Source: an uncultured Chloroflexia bacterium (lineage in GTDB: Bacteria; Chloroflexota; Limnocylindria; Limnocylindrales; CSP1-4). From it: a stretch of 64,000 bases of DNA. The translations under genes and the position numbers were made by a program. Positions 1 to 12,179 of the stretch are shown here, piece by piece. Where the stretch lies: positions 7,876-71,875 of the forward strand of contig CAVQSY010000023.1 of NCBI GenBank assembly GCA_963716025.1. The letters are read 5' to 3'. Positions within the stretch are counted from its first letter, which is position 1; the number at the start of each line of letters is the position of its first letter. Under the pieces are notes generated by a model. It saw only the letters and a program-made list of their open reading frames with translations, made no database searches and was not told where the DNA came from.

Positions 1-183
1 GTTGGCCTCGCGCCTGCACCGGGTGCTTTTGGGAGACCGATGACCGTGATGGTACCCGCGGCAGAAAACAGCGAAATTGCCAGCCGATTGGCGGTCACAA
101 TATCCTGGGGCAATTCTTGTCAGCATGCCACGGGCTAGCCGCTAGAACGCAAGATTCCCTAGTGCTTTGTCACAATTGAAAAT

Positions 184-264
184 CAGGGTTGTTGCTATTA
201 GCCGTTTTGGCACAGCCACGGTTGCTCCGAGGAACCGTGGCAAGCACAAAACGGCTAATCCCTG
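184..264. repeat. Imperfect 81-bp hairpin/palindrome upstream of the MoxR gene
   Basis: Arms ATTAGCCGTTTTG..GCCACGGTT (197-223) and AACCGTGGC..CAAAACGGCTAAT (233-259) pair around a 9-nt loop. CAGGG (184-188) and CCCTG (260-264) extend the stem across a bulge. The motif AAACGGCTAAT recurs at 7767-7777. Confidence 0.6.
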
Positions 265-303
265 CTTTTGAGTTTGACAAAACGCTCGTGATGTAGAAAA
301 AGA

Positions 304-1262
304 ATGATGACTCCTCACGAATCCATTCTAAGCATCTCCGCCGCGATGAATGCGGCAGTCATCGGCCAGCAGACGGTGGTCGAGCGATTGCTGATCGCAT
401 TGTTGGCCGACGGCAACGTGCTGATGGAAGGCTTGCCCGGCACCGCCAAGACACGTTCGATCAAGACCCTGTCCGGACTGATCGAAGGCGTGAATTCGCC
501 GCGTTCAGTTCACGCCTGATCTGTTGCCCTCCGACGTGACCGGCTCGGAGATCTATCGCGAGCAGACCGCGACGTTCGAGTTCCAGCCAGGACCGCTATT
601 CGGCAATTTGGTGTTGGCCGACGAGATCAATCGGGCCCCGGCCAAAGTCCAGGCCGCGCTGCTCGAGGCGATGGAGGAACGGCAGGTGACGTGTTGCCGG
701 CAAGACGCACAAGTTACCGGACTTGTTTCTAGTTCTCGCGCCACGCAAAATCCAATCGAACAAGAGGGGACGTATCCGCTACCGGAGGCGCAGATGGATC
801 GATTCTTGGTATACGTCCAAGTGCCCTACCCGCTGCGGAGAATGAGCTCGCGATCCTGCGTCTGGTCCGCAGTGAAGAATCGGCAACCAGCGGCCAACCG
901 GAGCCGGTTTCGCAGCAGACGATCTTTGCCGCCCGCCGGGAAGATTGGGTCGATGCATGTCGCCGATGCCGAACGCTACCTTGTAGACCTGGTCATTGCC
1001 ACGCGGCATCCAAAGCGTTACGGGGATCTCGCCAAATGGATTCAGCTGGGCGCCACCGCGAGCCACGATTGCCTTAGACGCTCGCCGCACGGGCTCGCGC
1101 TGGCTACGGGGCAACGATTTTGTTTCGCCAGAAGACATACAAGCCGTCGCACCCGCTTGCTTGTCCCATCGCATTCACTTGTCCTACGAAGCCGAGGCCG
1201 CCGGAAGGACGCGCGAGGATGTCGTGGACGAGGTACTGCAACGCGTCGCGGTGACTGCATGA
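304..1262 (+). pseudogene. MoxR-family AAA+ ATPase, reading frame broken repeatedly (pseudogene or error-ridden sequence)
   Basis: Walker A GLPGTAKT lies in the 304 [55 protein letters not shown] and [20 protein letters not shown] lie in a second frame. [11 protein letters not shown] and the C-terminal [31 protein letters not shown] lie in other frames. I count at least 6 frame changes. Confidence 0.85.
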
Positions 1263-1270
1263 TTTCGGTA

Positions 1271-1435
1271 GCAGAGCTCGCGCAGCGTTTGGGTTGGTTT
1301 GTTGTTGCGGAACTCGCGTAGAGTTTCGGCTCTGGTTTGTTGTAGAGTTTCGGCTCTGAATCGAAAGTCTGCGCGACTTCCGCTACGATAATGCGCCTGG
1401 CCGAAAGTCTGCCGCAACTTCCGCTACGATAATGC
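1271..1435. repeat. Two adjacent short tandem-repeat arrays in the MoxR-DUF58 spacer
   Basis: A ~37-bp unit (GCrGArCTCGCGyAGnGTTTnGGnTnGGTTTGTTGT) is present about 2.4 times at 1271-1358. A ~34-bp unit (CGAAAGTCTGCnnnnACTTCCGCTACGATAATGC) is present twice, at 1362-1394 and 1402-1435. Confidence 0.7.
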
Positions 1436-1475
1436 AACGGGACGAGGTCTTTAATGCCCAGCACGACTGCCACTC

Positions 1476-2381
1476 GTGTTTACAGTACGCCTCGATGATC
1501 TGATCCGCTTCCGGAGCTCGGCACGTGGATTTTCGCTGCTTCCTCGGCAACCGATCAACAGTTTGCTCAGCGGCCAACATGTTTCTCGTCTACGTGGCCG
1601 TGGATTAATGTTCGAGGAACTTCGCGGCTACCGCCCTGGCGACGATATTCGCCAGATGGATTGGAAGGCGACGGTCCGCCATGCGAAACCGCAGGTTCGC
1701 GTCTATTCGGAAGAGCGAGAGCGACCGATATTGTTGGTCGTAGATCAACGGTCAACGATGTTTTTCGGTAGCCATCGTATGACCAAGGCGGTCGCGGCAG
1801 TCGAGGTCGCTGCTCTGGGAGCTTGGCGGGTCTGGACGCAGGTGATCGCGTGGGCAGCGATCTTATTCGACGATGAGGAAACCATGGAGATTCGTCCCTG
1901 CCGAAGTCGCGATAGCGTACTTCGGATCTGCACGAAATCGTGCGCATGAATAATCAATTGTCTGCCGAAAAGACTTTTGCCCATTCTGACAATCGCTTGA
2001 ACGACGCATTGCGGCGTGCCGTCCAGGTGGCCAACCACGATTACCTAGTCGTATTGATCACCGACTACCATGGCGACGATGCAGAGACTCGAGCTCTGGC
2101 CACTCGGCTCGCCGTACACAATGATGTGCTAGCTGTACTCGTCTACGATCCGCTGGGAATTCGACTGCCACAGGCGGGCGGACTCATGGCGACCGACGGT
2201 CACGCGCAATTGTCGATTCCAACGGGCGAGAGATTTGGGACACTGTTCGAGTCTGGAGTTTCAAAAACGCTGTGATCAATTGCGTGACAGGTGCGCACGA
2301 TCCGCATTCCGAATCTTACCAATTTGCACGCATGAGTCGGTGTTGGACCAAGTTCGTTCGGCATTGGGTGGCCAGCCATGA
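1476..2381 (+). pseudogene. DUF58 (MoxR-associated, VWA-like) protein, frameshifted
   Basis: LRGRGLMFEELRGYRPGDDIRQMDWKAT is the typical DUF58 signature. GDRVG and AILFDDEE sit in different frames near 1840. The 1940 ORF continues the protein. The tail ...ICTHESVLDQVRSALGGQP reaches a TGA that overlaps the next ATG (ATGA at 2378-2381). Confidence 0.8.
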
Positions 2382-2858
2382 ATGATGACCTAGCCAGCTT
2401 GGACAATTTGCGAGACATCGTCGAACCGCCTCCAGTTTCGTGGTGGCCCGCCTGCCCGGGCTGGTGGATGTTGCTCGCGATACTCGCCAGCGTAGCCTCG
2501 GTCATCATCTGGCGGCGCTGGCAAACATGGCGAGCCAATGCCTATCGGCGTGCCGCCCTGGCCGAACTCCGCTCGGCAGCCAACGCGCGTGCAATTGCGG
2601 AGATTTTGAAACGTGCGGCGCTGGTCGCCAACCCTCGCACGGAAATAGCTTCGAAAACGGGGCCAGCCTGGCTAAGTTGGTTAGAGAGCGAGGGAGGCCA
2701 ACCCCTGCCGCGTCACGTGGCGCTGATGATGACCGATGGAGTCTTCGGATGAATTTGCCCCAGCCAACATAGCTGATTTGACTAGCTTCGCCTCCGCTTG
2801 GATCAAACATCATCCCGATCGCCGTAAATCGGAAAAGCCCGAGGTGGTCGAGTGTTGA
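2378..2858 (+). CDS. Small single-TM protein of Bat operons (DUF4381-like), one frame change near 2748
   Basis: It has a TM helix (WWPACPGWWMLLAILASVASVIIWRRW) and sits in the conserved position between DUF58 and BatA. After the frame change the tail ...ADLTSFASAWIKHHPDRR ends at TGA 2856-2858, overlapping the TTG start of the next gene. Confidence 0.6.
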
Positions 2859-3891
2859 CTTTTGGCAATTCTTGGATGTTATTTCTGTCGCCATTGCCGC
2901 TGCTAGTCTGGTGGCTGTTGCCACCGCGAAGCGAAACGAATGTGGCCGTTCGCATTCCATTTTTCGACCGCGCAAGGCAGGCAAGCATTGCCAGCCCGCC
3001 AACGATCGAGCAACAGGGTTAAGAATCCCACTCTGGCTGCTCGATGGTTTGGTTGCTGATCGTGTTCGCACTGGCTCCGTCCCCAGTGGTTGGAAGAACC
3101 CATAGAAAAGTTGATTCCAACGCGCTGACCTGCTATTGGTCGTTGATCTGTCAGGTTCGATGGAACAGGAGGACTTTACCAACGCGCAAGGAGGTTCCGT
3201 TAGCCGTTTGGACGCTGTGAAAGAGGTTGTTGGCGATTTCCTGACGCGTCGCCAAGGAGATCGAGTTGGGCTGGTGGTGTTTGGCAATTCTCCGTTTTTA
3301 CAGGTTCCGTTTACGACGGACCTGGAGCTTTGTCGTCAATTGTTAGACCAAACCGCGGTCCGTATGGCCGGGCCCAAGACGGCGCTGGGCGATGCAATCG
3401 GTTTGGGAATCCATCTGTTCAACGACAGTGATGCCCCTACCAAAACACTGATTGCACTGACCGATGGAAATGACACTGCCAGTGCCGTTCCGCCGGTCGA
3501 AGCGGCACGTGTTGCCAGCGATCGTGGGATCACTATTCACACGGTGGCAATCGGGAATCCAGAGACGACCGGCGAGGAAAAATTGGACGAATCAACGTTG
3601 CGGTCGGTAGCCGAAGCGACCGGTGGACAATTCTTTTTGGCACTCGACCGACAGGAGCTGCAAGGAATTTATCAGCAGTTGGACGAGATTGAAACGCGTG
3701 ATGTGAAGACGGTCAGCCATCGACCGCGACGCGACTTGTATTATTGGCCACTCGCCGCAGCGCTATTGATTTCATTGGCTGCTCATAGTTGGCAGTGGTG
3801 GCGCATGCGGGGTCGAGTGCCAGTCCGCCGGAAGCAGACGCGATTGAAGGTCAATCCCAGAACCTTCGAGCTGGAGACGATCGAGTCATGA
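2855..3891 (+). pseudogene. batA: VWA-domain membrane protein, BatA-like, frameshifted in the N-terminal third
   Basis: It carries the MIDAS motif VVDLSGSM, then GDRVGLVVFG and LTDGNDTAS, and a C-terminal TM (YYWPLAAALLISLAA). The N-terminal TM segments (SWMLFLSPLPLLVWWLL and VWLLIVFALA) are spread over other frames. Confidence 0.75.
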
Positions 3892-3911
3892 ACGGAGACG
3901 ATCGAGTCATG
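3873..3911. repeat. 21-bp tandem duplication spanning the batA stop / batB start
   Basis: GGAGACGATCGAGTCATG occurs at 3873-3890 and again at 3894-3911, separated by AAC. The first copy holds the ATGA stop/start overlap (3888-3891). The second copy creates another in-frame ATG at 3909. Confidence 0.8.
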
Positions 3912-4840
3912 TACATTGTCGAGCAATTTCACTTCATTCGTCCGGCATGGTTGCTGATGATCCCCGTCGTCGTCTGGCTGTGGTGGCTCGGGAGACGCTG
4001 GCGCGATCCGACTCGGCGGCTGGCGGGTGCAATGGATCGCGAGTTGTTGGCGGCGCTCACAGTTGGCCAAACGTCAGCCAACCATTGGTTGTCGCTATCG
4101 CTGCTGGCCGCTTGGTTGTTAGCCTCGGTCTCGCTGGCTGGGCCAACATGGCATCTTGAGCCATCACCGTTTGCCGATGACCCAATCCCGTTGATGTTAT
4201 TGCTCCGCGCCGATGCTTCCATGGACCAAGATGATCTGTCACCCAGCCGCATAGAACGGGCGCGACTGAAAGTGGCGGATATCGCCGAGCTCCGCAAGGG
4301 ACAGCCGCTGGGACTGATCGCCTATGCAGGTTCGGCGCACCTCGGTGCTTCCTCCAACCCGTGAAACGTCGCTAGTTGCGACGATGGCATCGGAGATTAG
4401 CTCAGCCATTATGCCCAAGCTGGGGGACAAAGTTGTGGAGTGCTTCAACTCGCCCACAGAACGCTCGCCTCAACCGGCGGCTCGGTAATCGTAATTGCGG
4501 ACTCTATCGAGCAAGCGAACATTGGCGAACTAGAAAAATTTGGGCGTACAAGTCAGCTCGACGTCCAGTTCCTGACGGTGGCCCCGGCCAATACACACGA
4601 AGCGGAAAGTGTTGCGACAGCGGCAACGGCAATTCGCGGTCGCGTCAACATGCTTACTCCCGACGACGACGATGTTCGAGCACTCGTCCACCGCGCCGCC
4701 AACGCCCCTCGCTCTGTCGTCTCAGCCGAAAACGGCACACTCTGGGCCGAAGCCGGCTGGTGGCTCTTAGCTCCGCTGTCAGTGTTGTCACTGATCGGCT
4801 TTCGCCGCACTCGAACCAATGTAGAAAGCTCGCCCGGTGA
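3888..4840 (+). pseudogene. batB: VWA-like membrane protein, BatB-like, frameshifted
   Basis: It has an N-terminal TM (PAWLLMIPVVVWLWW), a VWA-like core (PLMLLLRADASMDQDDLSPSRIERARLKVADIAEL, GGSVIVIADSIE) and a C-terminal TM (GWWLLAPLSVLSLIGF). There are at least 3 frame changes. The end is placed at TGA 4838-4840, which overlaps a GTG. Confidence 0.6.
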
Positions 4841-5472
4841 ACTGTTCGACGATAACCAAGGCGCAAGCAGTGCGTCCGTTGCCTATTCGTCCCTTCTGGC
4901 CGTTGGAGTCCTCACTTGGTCGAGCCTTTGGTTCTCACCTGACCAGCAGGGGCAGCGATTGATGCGATCTGGCAACTTTCAGCAAGCTGCCGAAACGTTT
5001 GCCGACCCTATGCGTCAAGGAATCGCATGGTTCCGCGCGGGGGAGTTCAAAAAGGCCGATCAAAGCTTTGCCCGACTAACGACTGCCGATGCGCTCTACA
5101 ATCGAGGTAACGCTCGTATCATGCTTGGCCAATACGAATCGGCGACAAAATCGTTTGATCAGGCACTTAAAAAACGTCCTGATTTTGCGGACGCGAAGAC
5201 GAACCGAGATATCGCCATTGCCCGCGCAAAACTAACCAAATCTGAAGGTGGTGATATGGGCGACCAGGAAGCTCGGCGCTGACGAAATTCGCTTCGATAA
5301 ACAGAAATCGGGTGGCCAGGAGACGATTGTGGAGAAACAACAGGCAGTCTCCGACGCGACGATGCAGTCGCTGTGGCTTCGCCGTGTGCAGACGAAGCCC
5401 GCCGAATTCCTCAAGGCCAAGTTTGCTTATCAGCTCGCAACCCATGACGAGCAACCGGAGGCGAGTCAATGA
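4837..5472 (+). pseudogene. batC: TPR-repeat protein, BatC-like, frameshifted
   Basis: TPR-type repeats are present (IAWFRAGEFKKADQSF, ALYNRGNARIMLGQYESATKSFDQALKKRPDFADA). The C-terminal piece (KLGADEIRFDKQ...KPAEFLKAKFAYQL) is in another frame and ends in an ATGA overlap with batD. The start is approximate. Confidence 0.6.
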
Positions 5473-6853
5473 AGCCAAACTCTGAGCGGGAAAAAAATGT
5501 CAGATACCATTTGCCAGGAACTGGCCCTACGGGTGCTTTGTACAAATGGTATCTGACGCTTTTTTCCCGACTGTTTATTCTGTTCTTCTCCTGGTCACAA
5601 CTCTGGGGGCCGGCGGTCTGTCTCGCTGAGACAGAAATTGTTCGTGCGGAATTGAAACAAAAATCTGCTTGGACCGGTGAGGGAGTTTCGATGTCAGTCA
5701 CTCTCTATTCTCCTGGACCATTTAGCGGCACTCCATCATTCGACCTACCTCACTTGCCTACCACAGCCATTGTCAAATCGGCCGGTAGTCCGCTGATCGG
5801 AAACAAAACCATCGGAGACGACTCATGGTTTACGCAGCGCCATGAATTTAGCATCTACACACAACAGACTGGAGTCATTGTCATTCCTGCATTTCGCGTT
5901 CGCTTTGCTGGGAAAAAGTCGTTCACCGGCGACGCGGAACCCATGCAGGGTGAGTCGGCTGAGCTACGTTTCTCCTCGAAACGACCGCCCGGGAACCGAA
6001 CAGCTTGGAATGGTAGTCGCGGCCGGCGAGCATGGAAGTCTCACAGACATGGAAGCCCCAGGATCCTGAAACGGTCAACGCTGGCGACGTGATCGAGCGC
6101 AATATCATGCGCCGAGCGACCGAGACATCGGCTATGATGTTTGCTCCCATACAATTGTCCCCCATTGACGATGTGCGCATTTATCCAGGCGAACCGACTG
6201 TCCAGGATCATGAGCAGCGAGGGGCAGATACCGCGCAGCGGAAGGACACTTTCAAGTACCAGTTTGCGAAACCTGGACAATATGTGGTGCCCGATTTGTC
6301 GATTGTCTGGTGGGATACAACGGCAGAGAAGTTACAGCATGAAACTCTTGCTGGGGTTGCGATCACAGTCCACAACGCTCCCTTGTCTGCAGACGCTGCC
6401 GCCGAGCTAAGCCACAGATATAGGCGGGGATTGGTTGTATTAGTTGTACTGATAACTCTCGCGGTCTGGCTTACCCGTCGCCCGCTTCGCAGAATGGTAA
6501 CTCGCTGGTGGGCGTGGAGGCGCGAGCCGAGTCACTTGGCCGCGCGGCAACTGCTCGCCGCTTGTCGAATGCACGACGCCCCAGCCGCTTGTATGGCACT
6601 GACTGCATGGAAACAGACATCGGGGTTTGCTCGTGAAGATTCCTGCCGCGCCAAACATGTGTCCACCTCACTGGTGAACGAATTCCAAAAAGAATCGGCT
6701 GAGCTACTGCGGCGAGTCTACGGCGGGACACAATCGCAGGCTGCTTGGCGCGGCGACAGGCTGGCAGTCGCGTTTCATCGCATACAATCGGCAATGGTAG
6801 CCGACGTTGAAACACATGAAGCGACACGTAGTCTTCCACGGCTCAATCCATAG
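5469..6853 (+). pseudogene. batD: BatD-like secreted/membrane protein, two frame changes near 5990-6035
   Basis: It occupies the last position in the Bat operon. The signal-peptide-like RLFILFFSWSQLWGPAVCLA is followed by a beta-rich ectodomain and a C-terminal TM (GLVVLVVLITLAVWL). The protein continues across the 5469, 5842 and 6032 ORFs. Confidence 0.6.
5488..5568. repeat. 81-bp palindromic element embedded in the first codons of batD
   Basis: 26-nt arms GGGAAAAAAATGTCAGATACCATTTG (5488-5513) and CAAATGGTATCTGACGCTTTTTTCCC (5543-5568) match at 24 of 26 positions around a 29-nt loop. The length is exactly 27 codons. Confidence 0.8.
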
Positions 6854-7119
6854 CGACTACCTGCCGTACCGTGGAGAAAAGCATTGCTCCATTGCCGATA
6901 CCGGCGCGGTGGACTTCGAAAAGACTAGCAAATAGTGAGATTTTCAAAGGTAACATAGATTCCCGCATAGTGCGAACACAGGATTGTTTATGGCGGCGAC
7001 GATTGAAAGTTGCCCAGAATCGTGCTATAGTTCGCAAAGGAAGCTGAGTCGTAATCCGCTGTGCGGAGTGTGGCTGCGTGGGCACAATTGCAAATCTTTT
7101 CTAAAAAGCGAACTACACT

Positions 7120-7713
7120 ATGTCCACTGGCCCAGACTCTTCGGAGCCTTTGAGCAGCGACATCTCCATTCTGAATGCTATTGCGGGGAACTGGTGGATC
7201 CTCTTGGTGCGTGGCTTGTTACTTATCGTGCTCGGACTCTATGCGCCGTTCAACCCCGGACTCGCGCTCCTAGCTTGGGCCTTTATGATCGGCTGCTTTC
7301 TGATCGCAGATGGGTTGCTTGCGATTGTCGCGGGCATCGCTGGCTGGACTAAATCTCGAGGCTGGACGATTCTGCGCGGAGTGCTTGCCGTGGTGGCAGG
7401 GGCGTTTGCTGCCGGCCACCCGGCCCTATTCGGAGTTATCGCGGCGATGACCGTCGTCCTGCTGATCGCCGCTTGGTCGATCATCGGCGGGGTTTTCGAG
7501 ATCATCATCGCAGTTCGCGAGCGCAAGGCGATCCAGGGGGAGGGATGGATGATCCTCGACGGCATTTTCTCCATCCTCTTCGGCGTCGTGCTTGCATCCG
7601 CACCGTTGCTGTCCGGCGGCTTACTGATTCGTGTGAGCGGTGCGTTTGCAATTTTGTTTGGTTTTGTGGTAATCTTTTCGTCATTCAAGCTTCGCAAGCT
7701 CAAGCACGTCTGA
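7120..7713 (+). CDS. hdeD: HdeD-family (DUF308) acid-resistance-type membrane protein
   Basis: This is an intact 197-aa ORF with about six TM helices and the repeated DUF308 pattern (WWILLVRGLLLIVLGL, GWTILRGVLAVVAGAFA, WMILDGIFSILFGVVL). Confidence 0.75.
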   Translation: MSTGPDSSEPLSSDISILNAIAGNWWILLVRGLLLIVLGLYAPFNPGLALLAWAFMIGCFLIADGLLAIVAGIAGWTKSRGWTILRGVLAVVAGAFAAGHPALFGVIAAMTVVLLIAAWSIIGGVFEIIIAVRERKAIQGEGWMILDGIFSILFGVVLASAPLLSGGLLIRVSGAFAILFGFVVIFSSFKLRKLKHV

Positions 7714-7803
7714 TTAAGTGACCGCGCATAAGTTTTCAGCATTAAGAACAACCGTAGCAAACGCCGAAACGGCTAATGATGCGTAAAAATTTGTGCATGG
7801 AGT

Positions 7804-7976
7804 CTTAATTGGACAGCGCCACTTTGCGTGCAATGGTAACCCGAAGCGTAAGCGAGGAAAAGAGTTACGCAAAAAGCCTCGCTAACGCTTCGGGTTACCA
7901 TTGAAATCGCCGCATCCTGCTTTATGCAAACAACTTATGAATACTATTACGTAAAAAGTGGCGCTGTCCAATTAAG
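7804..7976. repeat. 173-bp composite nested palindrome (MITE-like or bidirectional terminator-like)
   Basis: The outer 22-nt arms are perfect: CTTAATTGGACAGCGCCACTTT (7804-7825) and its reverse complement (7955-7976). The inner 27-nt arms (7831-7857 and 7877-7903) match at 26 of 27 positions around a 19-nt loop. TTACGyAAAAAG recurs at 7865 and 7947. Confidence 0.8.
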
Positions 7977-7995
7977 TGATGAGGTTTAAAGAAGC

Positions 7996-8614
7996 ATGAG
8001 TACTGCCGAACGTCCCAACTTTGTCACAGAAGACGATTACTTAGCATCCGAGGAATTGGCGATAACAAAAAGCGAGTACATCGACGGATGGATCCGCGCG
8101 ATGGCGGGAGCGACCAATCGACACAATCGTGTGAAAATGAATTGCCTGTTGAACCTCGGGGTTGGATTGAAGAACAAGTCTTGTCAGCCATGGGATTCGG
8201 ACACCAAGGTTCGTATACGTGGTTTCGGTTATACTCGCTTTTACTATCCTGATGCACAGGTCGTCTGCGAGAGCAATGCACCGACAGACGTGTTCCAAGA
8301 CAAACCAGTGGTCATCATCGAAGTCTTGTCACCATCGACGCGGGCCTACGATTTGGATGAAAAGCTGAACGCCTATCTTAGGATTGCGTCGTTGCAATGT
8401 TATGTGATTCTTGAAAAGCACACACCGCTGGCAATTGTAATGCGACTGTACGCCGGCTGGGTTTCTGCGTGAGACCTACGAAGGCACTGATGCGACGATC
8501 GATCTGCCATCCATAGGTTGTGAGCTGCTACTTCGTGAGGTCTATAAGGGGGTTGAATTCACACCAACCTGCGTTCAAGAATCTGAACAAGAGTACGAGC
8601 GAACCACAGACTGA
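7996..8614 (+). CDS. Uma2-family (DUF820) PD-(D/E)XK endonuclease, one frame change near 8455
   Basis: EYIDG, YYPDAQVVCE and VVIIEVLSPSTRAYDLDEKLNAYLRI match the Uma2 catalytic pattern. After the shift the tail is ...RETYEGTDATIDLPSIGCELLLREVYKGV, ending at TGA 8612-8614. Confidence 0.75.
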
Positions 8615-8728
8615 TAGACTAATCCCAATAAAAGTGCTGTAACCGTTCACACGATAGAGAGATAGCGATGTTTACCTTGATGATATAGGACTTTATCCGT
8701 GCTCCGGCATTGCCATCCGTGCTAGTCC

Positions 8729-12179
<3,451 letters not shown>

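Follow-up and report, generated by a model that had tools for sequence, protein, structure and literature searches.

A 64,000-nt stretch of contig CAVQSY010000023.1 (assembly GCA_963716025.1, deposited as an uncultured Chloroflexia bacterium; hereafter the window, whose positions are used throughout) carries a strong hairpin within the first codons of batD, a gene of the Bat operon. The hairpin is a copy of a dispersed palindromic repeat of about 90 nt whose copy number in some Pirellulales genomes ranges from tens to at least 75. We interpret its position as the tolerated in-frame insertion of a terminator-like mobile palindrome into batD, comparable to the Rickettsia palindromic elements (RPEs), which are repeats of about 150 bp, similar to transposable elements of the miniature inverted-repeat type (MITEs), found as in-frame fusions with many unrelated genes (PMC10969869). 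We assign this interpretation a probability of roughly 0.75.

A hairpin at the start of batD

A repeat search of the window identifies an inverted repeat with arms at 5487-5513 and 5543-5569, each of 27 nt, 29 nt apart and complementary at 25 of 27 positions (93%). The arm sequence is unique to these two sites in the window and was matched in none of 100 shuffles, and the RNA fold of the region reaches -44.9 kcal/mol (z = -7.9), a stability equalled by none of 200 shuffles. An earlier reading of the sequence alone, hereafter the original prediction, had proposed a palindrome with 26-nt arms at 5488-5568; the hairpin is real, and an additional C-G pair (5487/5569) brings its arms to 27 nt. The placement it gave, 19 nt after the batD ATG, is correct, the core starting at 5488 and the A of the start codon lying at 5469. 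It had further described the element as exactly 27 codons long and frame-preserving. The 81 nt of 5488-5568 do amount to 27 codons, and the open reading frame (ORF) 5469-6092 stays open across the hairpin; the boundaries are fuzzier than proposed, the conserved element extending by family alignment from about 5484/5486 to about 5570/5572, or 83-89 nt. Judged from these alignments, the figure of 27 codons fits the hairpin core and does not by itself prove the length of the insertion. The flanking runs of the window copy read A7 and T6, lengths that are unreliable to the base because the assembly is indel-rich.

The predicted fold leaves the Shine-Dalgarno (SD) sequence GGAGG and the AUG unpaired by the hairpin. 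Both the minimum free energy and the centroid folds place the SD region CCGGAGG (5455-5461) beside a complementary CUCCUGG (5588-5594) in the signal-peptide codons, a predicted weak SD/anti-SD pairing whose ensemble frequency is low.

Membership, abundance and distribution of the repeat family

Thirty-six orthologous Bat loci were retrieved, and their genomes were searched by BLAST with the 89-nt window element. This search returned 39 matches in one Pirellulaceae genome (G002), at 73-80% identity and mostly full length, and a single match, at 81% identity, in another (G001); the closest copies to that of the window, at 83-85% identity, are found in genome G092. A covariance model (R1) was built from 21 copies in other genomes and applied with a hit threshold of E <= 1e-3. 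Its counts include both strands, and every copy scores twice, so that true copy numbers are about half of the hits reported here. The model scores at least 150 hits in G002, 92 in the isolate Stieleria sedimenti ICT_E10.1 (G012), 84 in G006, 69 in G004, 26 in G010, 21 in G001, 17 in G009 and 6 in G011, with zero hits in G005 and G007. Among 120 evenly sampled Pirellulales genomes the family is present in 10, four of which are saturated with hits, and several congeners of G002 are likewise rich in copies. Many copies lie at contig ends, the position to be expected of an assembly-breaking repeat.

The suggestion in the original prediction that the element might belong to a dispersed family is therefore borne out in related Pirellulales genomes and not in the source assembly, where BLAST returns only the window copy itself; this single copy says nothing either way, since that assembly contains no more than 16.5 kb of the Pirellulales organism. 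Rfam holds no such family and yields only sub-threshold hairpin noise from microRNA precursors, and a plasmid search gave no match. The Rhodopirellula-1 motif, a hairpin with a conserved AACAA...GAUGAAC / GUUAUC...GACGUU base (Weinberg et al. 2010, PMC2864571), was considered and rejected, its published alignment having no sequence in common with the family. The papers searched contain no description of the family, which is apparently not yet described.

Some copies show particular arrangements. Five copies in S. sedimenti (L077-L081) have flanks that are 100% identical within a 159-bp unit (38 nt, the element and 30 nt), as though the repeat were composite or had burst very recently. Two copies in the same orientation lie 40 nt apart between two genes of G001 (L041:1498-1718), and locus L073 holds two copies about 900 nt apart. 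About 2.2 kb 3' of batD in G004 (L008:5989-6118), the A-run/GGGG stem/T-run base of the family recurs in a related sequence that scores 34 bits and has a centre of 72 nt; ordinary terminators in these genomes may have this stem base too.

Conserved architecture of the element

The plan of the element is constant in eight genomes and in the window, and consists of (GGTC)GGG, A4-7, the left arm GGGGTCAGAYNCCAAWAG, a core, the right arm complementary to the left, T4-7 and CCC(GACC). The stem measures 26-29 bp, and its two sides change together between genomes and subfamilies, while the apical core, of 29-31 nt, is nearly invariant, with the consensus GCCG-GAA-CGGC, CCC-NNN-GGG, TGC-TYY-GCA. Across 41 copies, 94.7% of the cells in the long stem and the three mini-hairpins are paired, against 85% with shuffled partners and at most 53% in slid alignments, and both sides have changed in 20 of the 29 stem pairs.

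The stems of the three mini-hairpins (H1 to H3) are almost invariant and their loops vary, that of H2 reading TTC, GAA, GGA, TAA or TAC. An extra base pair extends H1 in the window, G001 and G092 copies, and it comes with a compensatory change from C-G to G-C between the window (GCCAG/CTGGC) and G092 (GCGAG/CTCGC); H3 has one compensatory variant, TAC/GTA. With these few events, pairing within the mini-hairpins is plausible, and the three tiny hairpins into which the core can fold would form a four-way junction with the stem. Wobble counts favour neither strand (G-U 19, A-C 10), and this lack of strand bias in wobble, together with that in orientation reported below, argues for a constraint on a DNA palindrome or two-way element and not on one RNA strand. 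The combination of a conserved tip and variable ends is the reverse of that of a classical terminal inverted repeat (TIR) element.

Genomic placement and mobility

The genes flanking 43 non-window copies were judged by codon-position GC. A gene 3' end lies within 150 nt of 23 of these copies, often at 5-60 nt, and the settings comprise about 13 convergent, 16 tandem and 7 divergent gene pairs; beside gene 3' ends, about 15 copies are in sense and 16 in antisense orientation. The window copy starts 15 nt past the batC stop, and it lies inside batD only because batC and batD overlap, its position otherwise fitting the post-stop habit of the family.

A filled and an empty site could be compared for one G002 copy, flanked by two long genes that converge on it. 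The congener G145 has this gene pair at 91% identity, with a spacing of about 10 nt against 117 nt in G002, about 107 nt including the element being missing; the boundary is sharp on the left and ragged on the right. No direct repeats flank the 20-44 aligned copies. From this comparison, copies appear to be gained or lost as units. Mobilisation by transposases of the RAYT/Y1 type was considered and found no support: Y1 genes (PF01797, IS200/RAYT-type) vary independently of element load (15 genes and no elements in G005, no genes and the six hits in G011), and no copy lies within 1.5 kb of any of the 12 best Y1 loci. The larger repeat unit of S. sedimenti was rejected as an insertion sequence (IS), being only about 159 bp long and having no ORF.

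In-frame copies in other genes

The analogy with RPEs drawn in the original prediction gains support from two more genic copies that are in frame. In G001, a Pirellulaceae metagenome-assembled genome (MAG), a histidine kinase of 529 aa (L087:944-2530, minus strand) has 1.5 copies in frame, placed after the first HisKA helix and ahead of the remainder of the protein. HisKA matches residues 289-317, which cover positions 2-30 of the 66 in the profile; the element encodes about 313-357 and HATPase_c lies at 424-524, all in the same frame. A gene for an NtrC-type response regulator adjoins this kinase gene.

The second case is viral. The conserved core was found on seven IMG/VR contigs, each with a full element, and four of them (L117, L118, L119 and L120, from four samples) represent the same (pro)phage, in which a lambda-type portal gene is followed by an ATGA-overlapping gene for a head-maturation protease (L118 5236-6594), identically in the four contigs. 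The element is in frame in the protease, about 45 residues from the N-terminus (residues 47-72, approximately). A phrog_53 match spans it (residues 17-384 against profile positions 19-364, with about 22 extra residues), and Peptidase_S49 covers residues 143-294. On another viral contig, L114, the element apparently lies at a stop/start overlap; this case was set aside, its plus-strand ORFs having the look of antisense artefacts.

On either strand, two of the three frames of the element contain no stop, and in 40 of 44 copies no stop interrupts the frame that the window uses. Survival in frame is thus easy, for which reason the in-frame state, taken by itself, speaks only weakly for selection.

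The putative BatD signal peptide and the batC/batD junction in orthologues

In silico removal of 5488-5568 gives MKPNSERLFILFFSWSQLWGPAVCLA/ETE, exactly as the original prediction stated, and the element-less N-terminus of BatD reads as a putative signal peptide; to call it a textbook one, as the original prediction did, is a judgement from inspection and from alignment with the N-termini of orthologues. With the element in place, the n-region is enlarged to 34 residues, of which residues 7-34 are the element; it is followed by the h-region LFILFFSWSQLWGPAV and by the c-region CLA, and then by ETE. By inspection the n-region has a net charge of about +4, and the whole aligns with the signal peptides of orthologues, which are Pirellulales proteins.

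The BatC C-terminal motif WLRRVQTKPAEFLKAKFAYQ is common to all orthologues, and the codons at the BatC C-terminus (GG[DE]x) also serve as ribosome-binding site for batD. The batC stop is overlapped by an [A/G]TGA that starts batD in 26 of 30 orthologous loci, and from this start the frame is open to a conserved SPGPF motif. The distance from the start to SPGPF ranges from 47 codons in the shortest to 99 in the longest orthologue, with 79 in the window, and the shortest forms are plain signal peptides such as MNRLSLGILLLVMAWTSTCLAQ. Nineteen orthologues have n-region extensions of at least 10 codons, all of them in frame; because the extensions are always in frame, unlike a non-coding spacer, the BatD n-region is best seen as translated and very length-tolerant.

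No family copy occurs at the batC/batD junction in any of 35 orthologous loci, the 27 residues are found in no orthologue, and a search of a protein database with the element-encoded N-terminus produced no candidate sharing words with it. The window insertion is therefore lineage-specific, being absent from the 35 junctions and encoding a peptide unmatched in that database. The original prediction had asked whether orthologues might simply share these residues, or whether the true start might lie downstream of the element; the first is answered by these junctions, and the second by the overlapping starts of the orthologues, by the GGAGG 7 nt before the ATG and by the absence of any in-frame ATG or GTG between the element and the mature protein, where in-frame TTG 5511 and CTG 5571 do exist.

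The n-region is hypervariable across Pirellulales and Verrucomicrobia loci (L005-L039, junction at about 2350-2700 in each). The idea that every n-region extension is a hairpin repeat holds only partly, most of them showing weak inverted repeats; the extension at L009 is unique in its genome. In a Fuerstiella-labelled MAG (L020:2405-2540), the BatD n-region has a 27-codon extension that is itself palindromic; it includes one arm of another short dispersed repeat, of which the genome has at least 11 further copies. In a further Fuerstiella MAG (L012:1324-2560), batC and batD are fused in one ORF (...KFAYQLATGDQQGGEPVSLIITLYSPGPF...), and the fusion is without the BatD signal peptide and the first 25 or so mature residues.

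The Bat operon and the state of the contig

By Pfam and homology, the neighbourhood of the element is a MoxR-DUF58-DUF4381-BatA-BatB/C-BatD operon. The source assembly (3.2 Mb, 70% complete) has a GC content of 67-73%, and the first 16.5 kb of the contig have only about 55%. Within the window, GC rises from about 0.5 to about 0.7 over 100 nt at 8650-8760, placing a join near 8700, and a pyruvate:ferredoxin oxidoreductase (PFOR) gene begins there in the middle of the protein. The contig is apparently chimeric, a 16.5-kb Pirellulales fragment being mis-joined to a 71%-GC genome.

Reading frames are broken on both sides of this join. Positions 1-8500 contain no ORF of at least 300 aa, and dense frame breaks between 300 and 13200 affect MoxR, DUF58, BatA, BatB/C, BatD and PFOR, the last of which, in the 71%-GC part, alternates between real and garbage translation. 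The pattern suggests an indel-rich long-read consensus and not pseudogenisation.

Interpretation and alternative explanations

Under the interpretation we favour, a small mobile palindrome, normally extragenic, would have landed just past the batC stop and, with the batD start overlapping that stop, would have come to occupy batD codons 7-34. The copy being open in the batD frame and the downstream frame being kept, some 27-29 residues would have been added to the n-region of BatD, and the insertion could have persisted by neither shifting the frame nor introducing a stop, in an n-region that would accept extra residues. It would then most likely be a passenger, selfish or neutral, that leaves the protein undestroyed, belonging to a family whose copies persist for the most part between genes, close to gene 3' ends, and whose A-run, stem and T-run resemble a two-way intrinsic terminator. 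We infer that the window copy is translated and that BatD continues to be exported, and likewise any effect on termination.

Several observations weigh against this interpretation. The best BatD relative is only 51% identical, no empty batC/batD site from a close relative was found, and a BatD profile search of seven element-rich genomes returned nothing, although a positive control was found; with no such empty site, the exact insertion boundaries and length are unproven. The window element has no sibling of its own subfamily, either by BLAST of the source assembly or in exact-pattern scans, which compared the arms (13 + 13 nt) with genome and metagenome contigs and the apical core with metagenome contigs. 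At the G002/G145 site there is no target-site duplication, and with the ragged right edge loss by deletion is possible. An in-frame, stop-free state has a chance probability of about 0.2-0.7, depending on whether element length is taken as fixed. Finally, the contig is chimeric and contains about one indel per kb, the batD frame is broken near 6000-6040 (two breaks), and there are at least 8 breaks in the 6.5-kb Bat operon; exact element length and batD intactness are uncertain because of this assembly quality, and translation and intactness in the living organism cannot be asserted.

A more far-reaching proposal, which we advance tentatively and consider doubtful, is that these repeats of Pirellulales and of their phages are mobile palindromes of a class of their own. 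A mobilising enzyme would recognise the asymmetric three-hairpin tip and not the ends, each transposition would re-template one arm from the other, and insertion would be directed to a few nucleotides past stops, where the element would act as a two-way terminator. If this were so, re-templating would explain the compensated divergence of the arms without selection on structure, and where genes overlap, as batC and batD do, the targeting would place the element in the 5' coding part of the gene that follows, and signal-peptide n-regions would become recurrent landing pads.

The insertion could instead have been exapted as a regulator, a possibility that we regard as improbable. With its U-run, a hairpin located 19 nt inside batD would serve to attenuate or terminate transcription or to stabilise 3' ends, thereby uncoupling batD from batABC, with the ribosome arriving from the coupled start suppressing termination. 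The design of A-run, GC-rich stem and T-run suits such a role, as do the enrichment of the family beside gene 3' ends and between convergent genes, its conservation across genomes whose BatD proteins are only 40-60% identical, the SD and AUG left free by the hairpin, and the coupling of batC and batD by a 4-nt overlap in orthologues, which makes the site structure-sensitive. Yet the orthologous junctions are without a comparable hairpin (inverted-repeat scores of 4-10, against 21 here), the apex of 29-31 nt far exceeds the 3-8-nt loops of efficient intrinsic terminators and a terminator scan does not call the element, and neither orientation relative to neighbouring genes nor the G-U and A-C counts given above show a strand bias.

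We consider it quite unlikely that the Bat operon lies on a fragment decaying to pseudogenes, in which the in-frame insertion would be coincidental and without consequence for the protein. The frame breaks of the operon, two of them in batD, the lack of long ORFs in this part of the window and the sizeable chance probability of an in-frame, stop-free copy would all be expected if this were the case, but the unrelated 71%-GC part is equally broken in PFOR, which points to long-read consensus errors and not to biology, and the protein segments between breaks are well conserved (E of 3e-121 for BatD).

That the element is an untranslated leader, with BatD starting downstream of or inside the hairpin, is hardly credible. 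The in-frame TTG 5511 and CTG 5571 could serve as such starts, and gene callers are prone to over-extending ORFs across palindromic repeats, which are open in two of three frames; against this, TTG 5511 is buried in the stem, CTG is rare as a start codon and has no SD here, ATG 5469 has GGAGG at ideal spacing and an ATGA overlap conserved in 26 of 30 orthologues, and the 19 extended n-regions, unlike non-coding DNA, are always open from the overlapping start. Least likely of all is an assembly artefact from a fold-back or chimeric read in a noisy long-read contig, error-rich and chimeric about 3.2 kb downstream as it is, for fold-backs invert local sequence, whereas this hairpin belongs, as a diverged copy, to a family that independent genomes from short reads and from isolates also contain, has its own compensatory stem variants and a conserved asymmetric core, and is flanked on both sides by batC-to-batD reading frames that continue seamlessly.

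Relation to known repeats and significance

The family resembles RPEs in being palindromic, multi-copy and non-autonomous, with in-frame copies in BatD, a histidine kinase and a phage protease. It differs from them in belonging to another phylum, in being shorter (about 90 nt), in lying mostly between genes by gene 3' ends and in its conserved tip, and the likeness, drawn by description, is best taken as an analogy. With SPRITE it shares the character of a dispersed small repeat with the look of an intrinsic terminator and an intergenic accumulation, while sequence and host are unrelated, the stem is much longer, and the 29-31-nt apex is structured and the A-run and T-run symmetric. All copies do show terminator features, namely a GGGG...CCCC stem flanked by A4-7 and T4-7; the short loop of a terminator (about 3-8 nt) is replaced by the long apex, and a scan with a terminator consensus makes no call.

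REPs and REPINs are palindromes of 20-40 nt with a conserved GTAG or CGTC head that are mobilised by RAYT (Y1 HUH) transposases (PMC3733652). Like them, the family consists of hairpin-forming extragenic palindromes enriched after stops and between convergent genes, and has no target-site duplication; unlike them, it is 90 nt long, its ends read GGTCGGG or GCGGG with no GTAG or CGTC head, no RAYT-type gene at the 12 loci is flanked by copies, and Y1 counts do not track the elements. MITEs with element-long inverted repeats, such as Correia/NEMIS and ERIC (PMC2229807, PMC10969869), are likewise small, non-coding and high-copy, with a whole-length inverted repeat that can fold as RNA and an occasional intragenic position. 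The inverted repeat of the family also spans the whole element, at tens to at least 75 copies per genome; in contrast to those MITEs, no target-site duplication was seen, nor a parent IS, for which no systematic search was made, and the ends vary and the centre is conserved. The family thus stands outside the named families because it has no target duplication (MITEs) and no head tag or RAYT link (REP/RAYT), and it is a variant of the palindromic-repeat kind that is a member of no named family.

Planctomycetes are poorly covered by repeat and RNA catalogues, and a cultured carrier, S. sedimenti ICT_E10.1, makes the family experimentally tractable. The element breaks short-read assemblies, makes ORF calls too long and may pass for protein sequence. 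With the three in-frame copies, the RPE phenomenon of selfish hairpin DNA within proteins reaches a phylum of free-living bacteria and, beyond it, a structural gene of a phage. For Bat operons, the result marks the n-region of the BatD signal peptide as a highly permissive site, and the conserved tip with variable arms, the opposite of transposase-bound TIR elements, points to an unstudied way of moving.

Feature coordinates and other palindromes

The features of the batC/batD junction are collected in Table 1.

Table 1. Features around the start of batD (window positions)
Feature	Position	Strand	Basis and remarks
batC C-terminal piece (TPR protein), ending in KFAYQLATHDEQPEASQ before the stop	5248..5472	+	Stop TGA 5470-5472; frame-shifted relative to 4440-5282
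Shine-Dalgarno-like GGAGG	5457..5461	+	7 nt 5' of the batD ATG; read from sequence
batD start codon	5469..5471	+	ATGA overlap with the batC stop; same [A/G]TGA overlap in 26 of 30 orthologous loci
BatD residues 1-53, putative signal peptide	5469..5627	+	Translation and alignment with orthologue N-termini; called by inspection
batD N-terminal ORF piece, 207 aa	5469..6092	+	BatD orthologues, best E 3e-121; frame breaks near 6000-6040
Covariance model R1 match, full extent	5483..5575	+	80.8 bits, E 1.6e-17; reverse strand 45 bits
Left arm C-GGG-A7-TGTCAGATACCATTTG	5487..5513	+	Repeat search; covaries with the right arm family-wide
Apical core, three mini-hairpins	5514..5542	+	Family alignments; stems kept, loops vary
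H1 CCAG-GAA-CTGG	5514..5524	+	Part of apical core
H2 CCC-TAC-GGG	5525..5533	+	Part of apical core
H3 TGC-TTT-GTA	5534..5542	+	Part of apical core
Right arm CAAATGGTATCTGACGC-T6-CCC-G	5543..5569	+	Repeat search
batD C-terminal ORF piece, 273 aa, with DUF7939	6032..6853	+	PF25607, E 1e-10

Two other palindromes lie in the Pirellulales fragment, at 197-259 and 7804-7976, neither of which matches the family model R1. The former is a hairpin with 31-nt arms, and the latter is a nested palindrome between the DUF308 and Uma2 genes, with outer arms at 7804-7838 and 7942-7976 and inner arms at 7831-7857 and 7877-7903.

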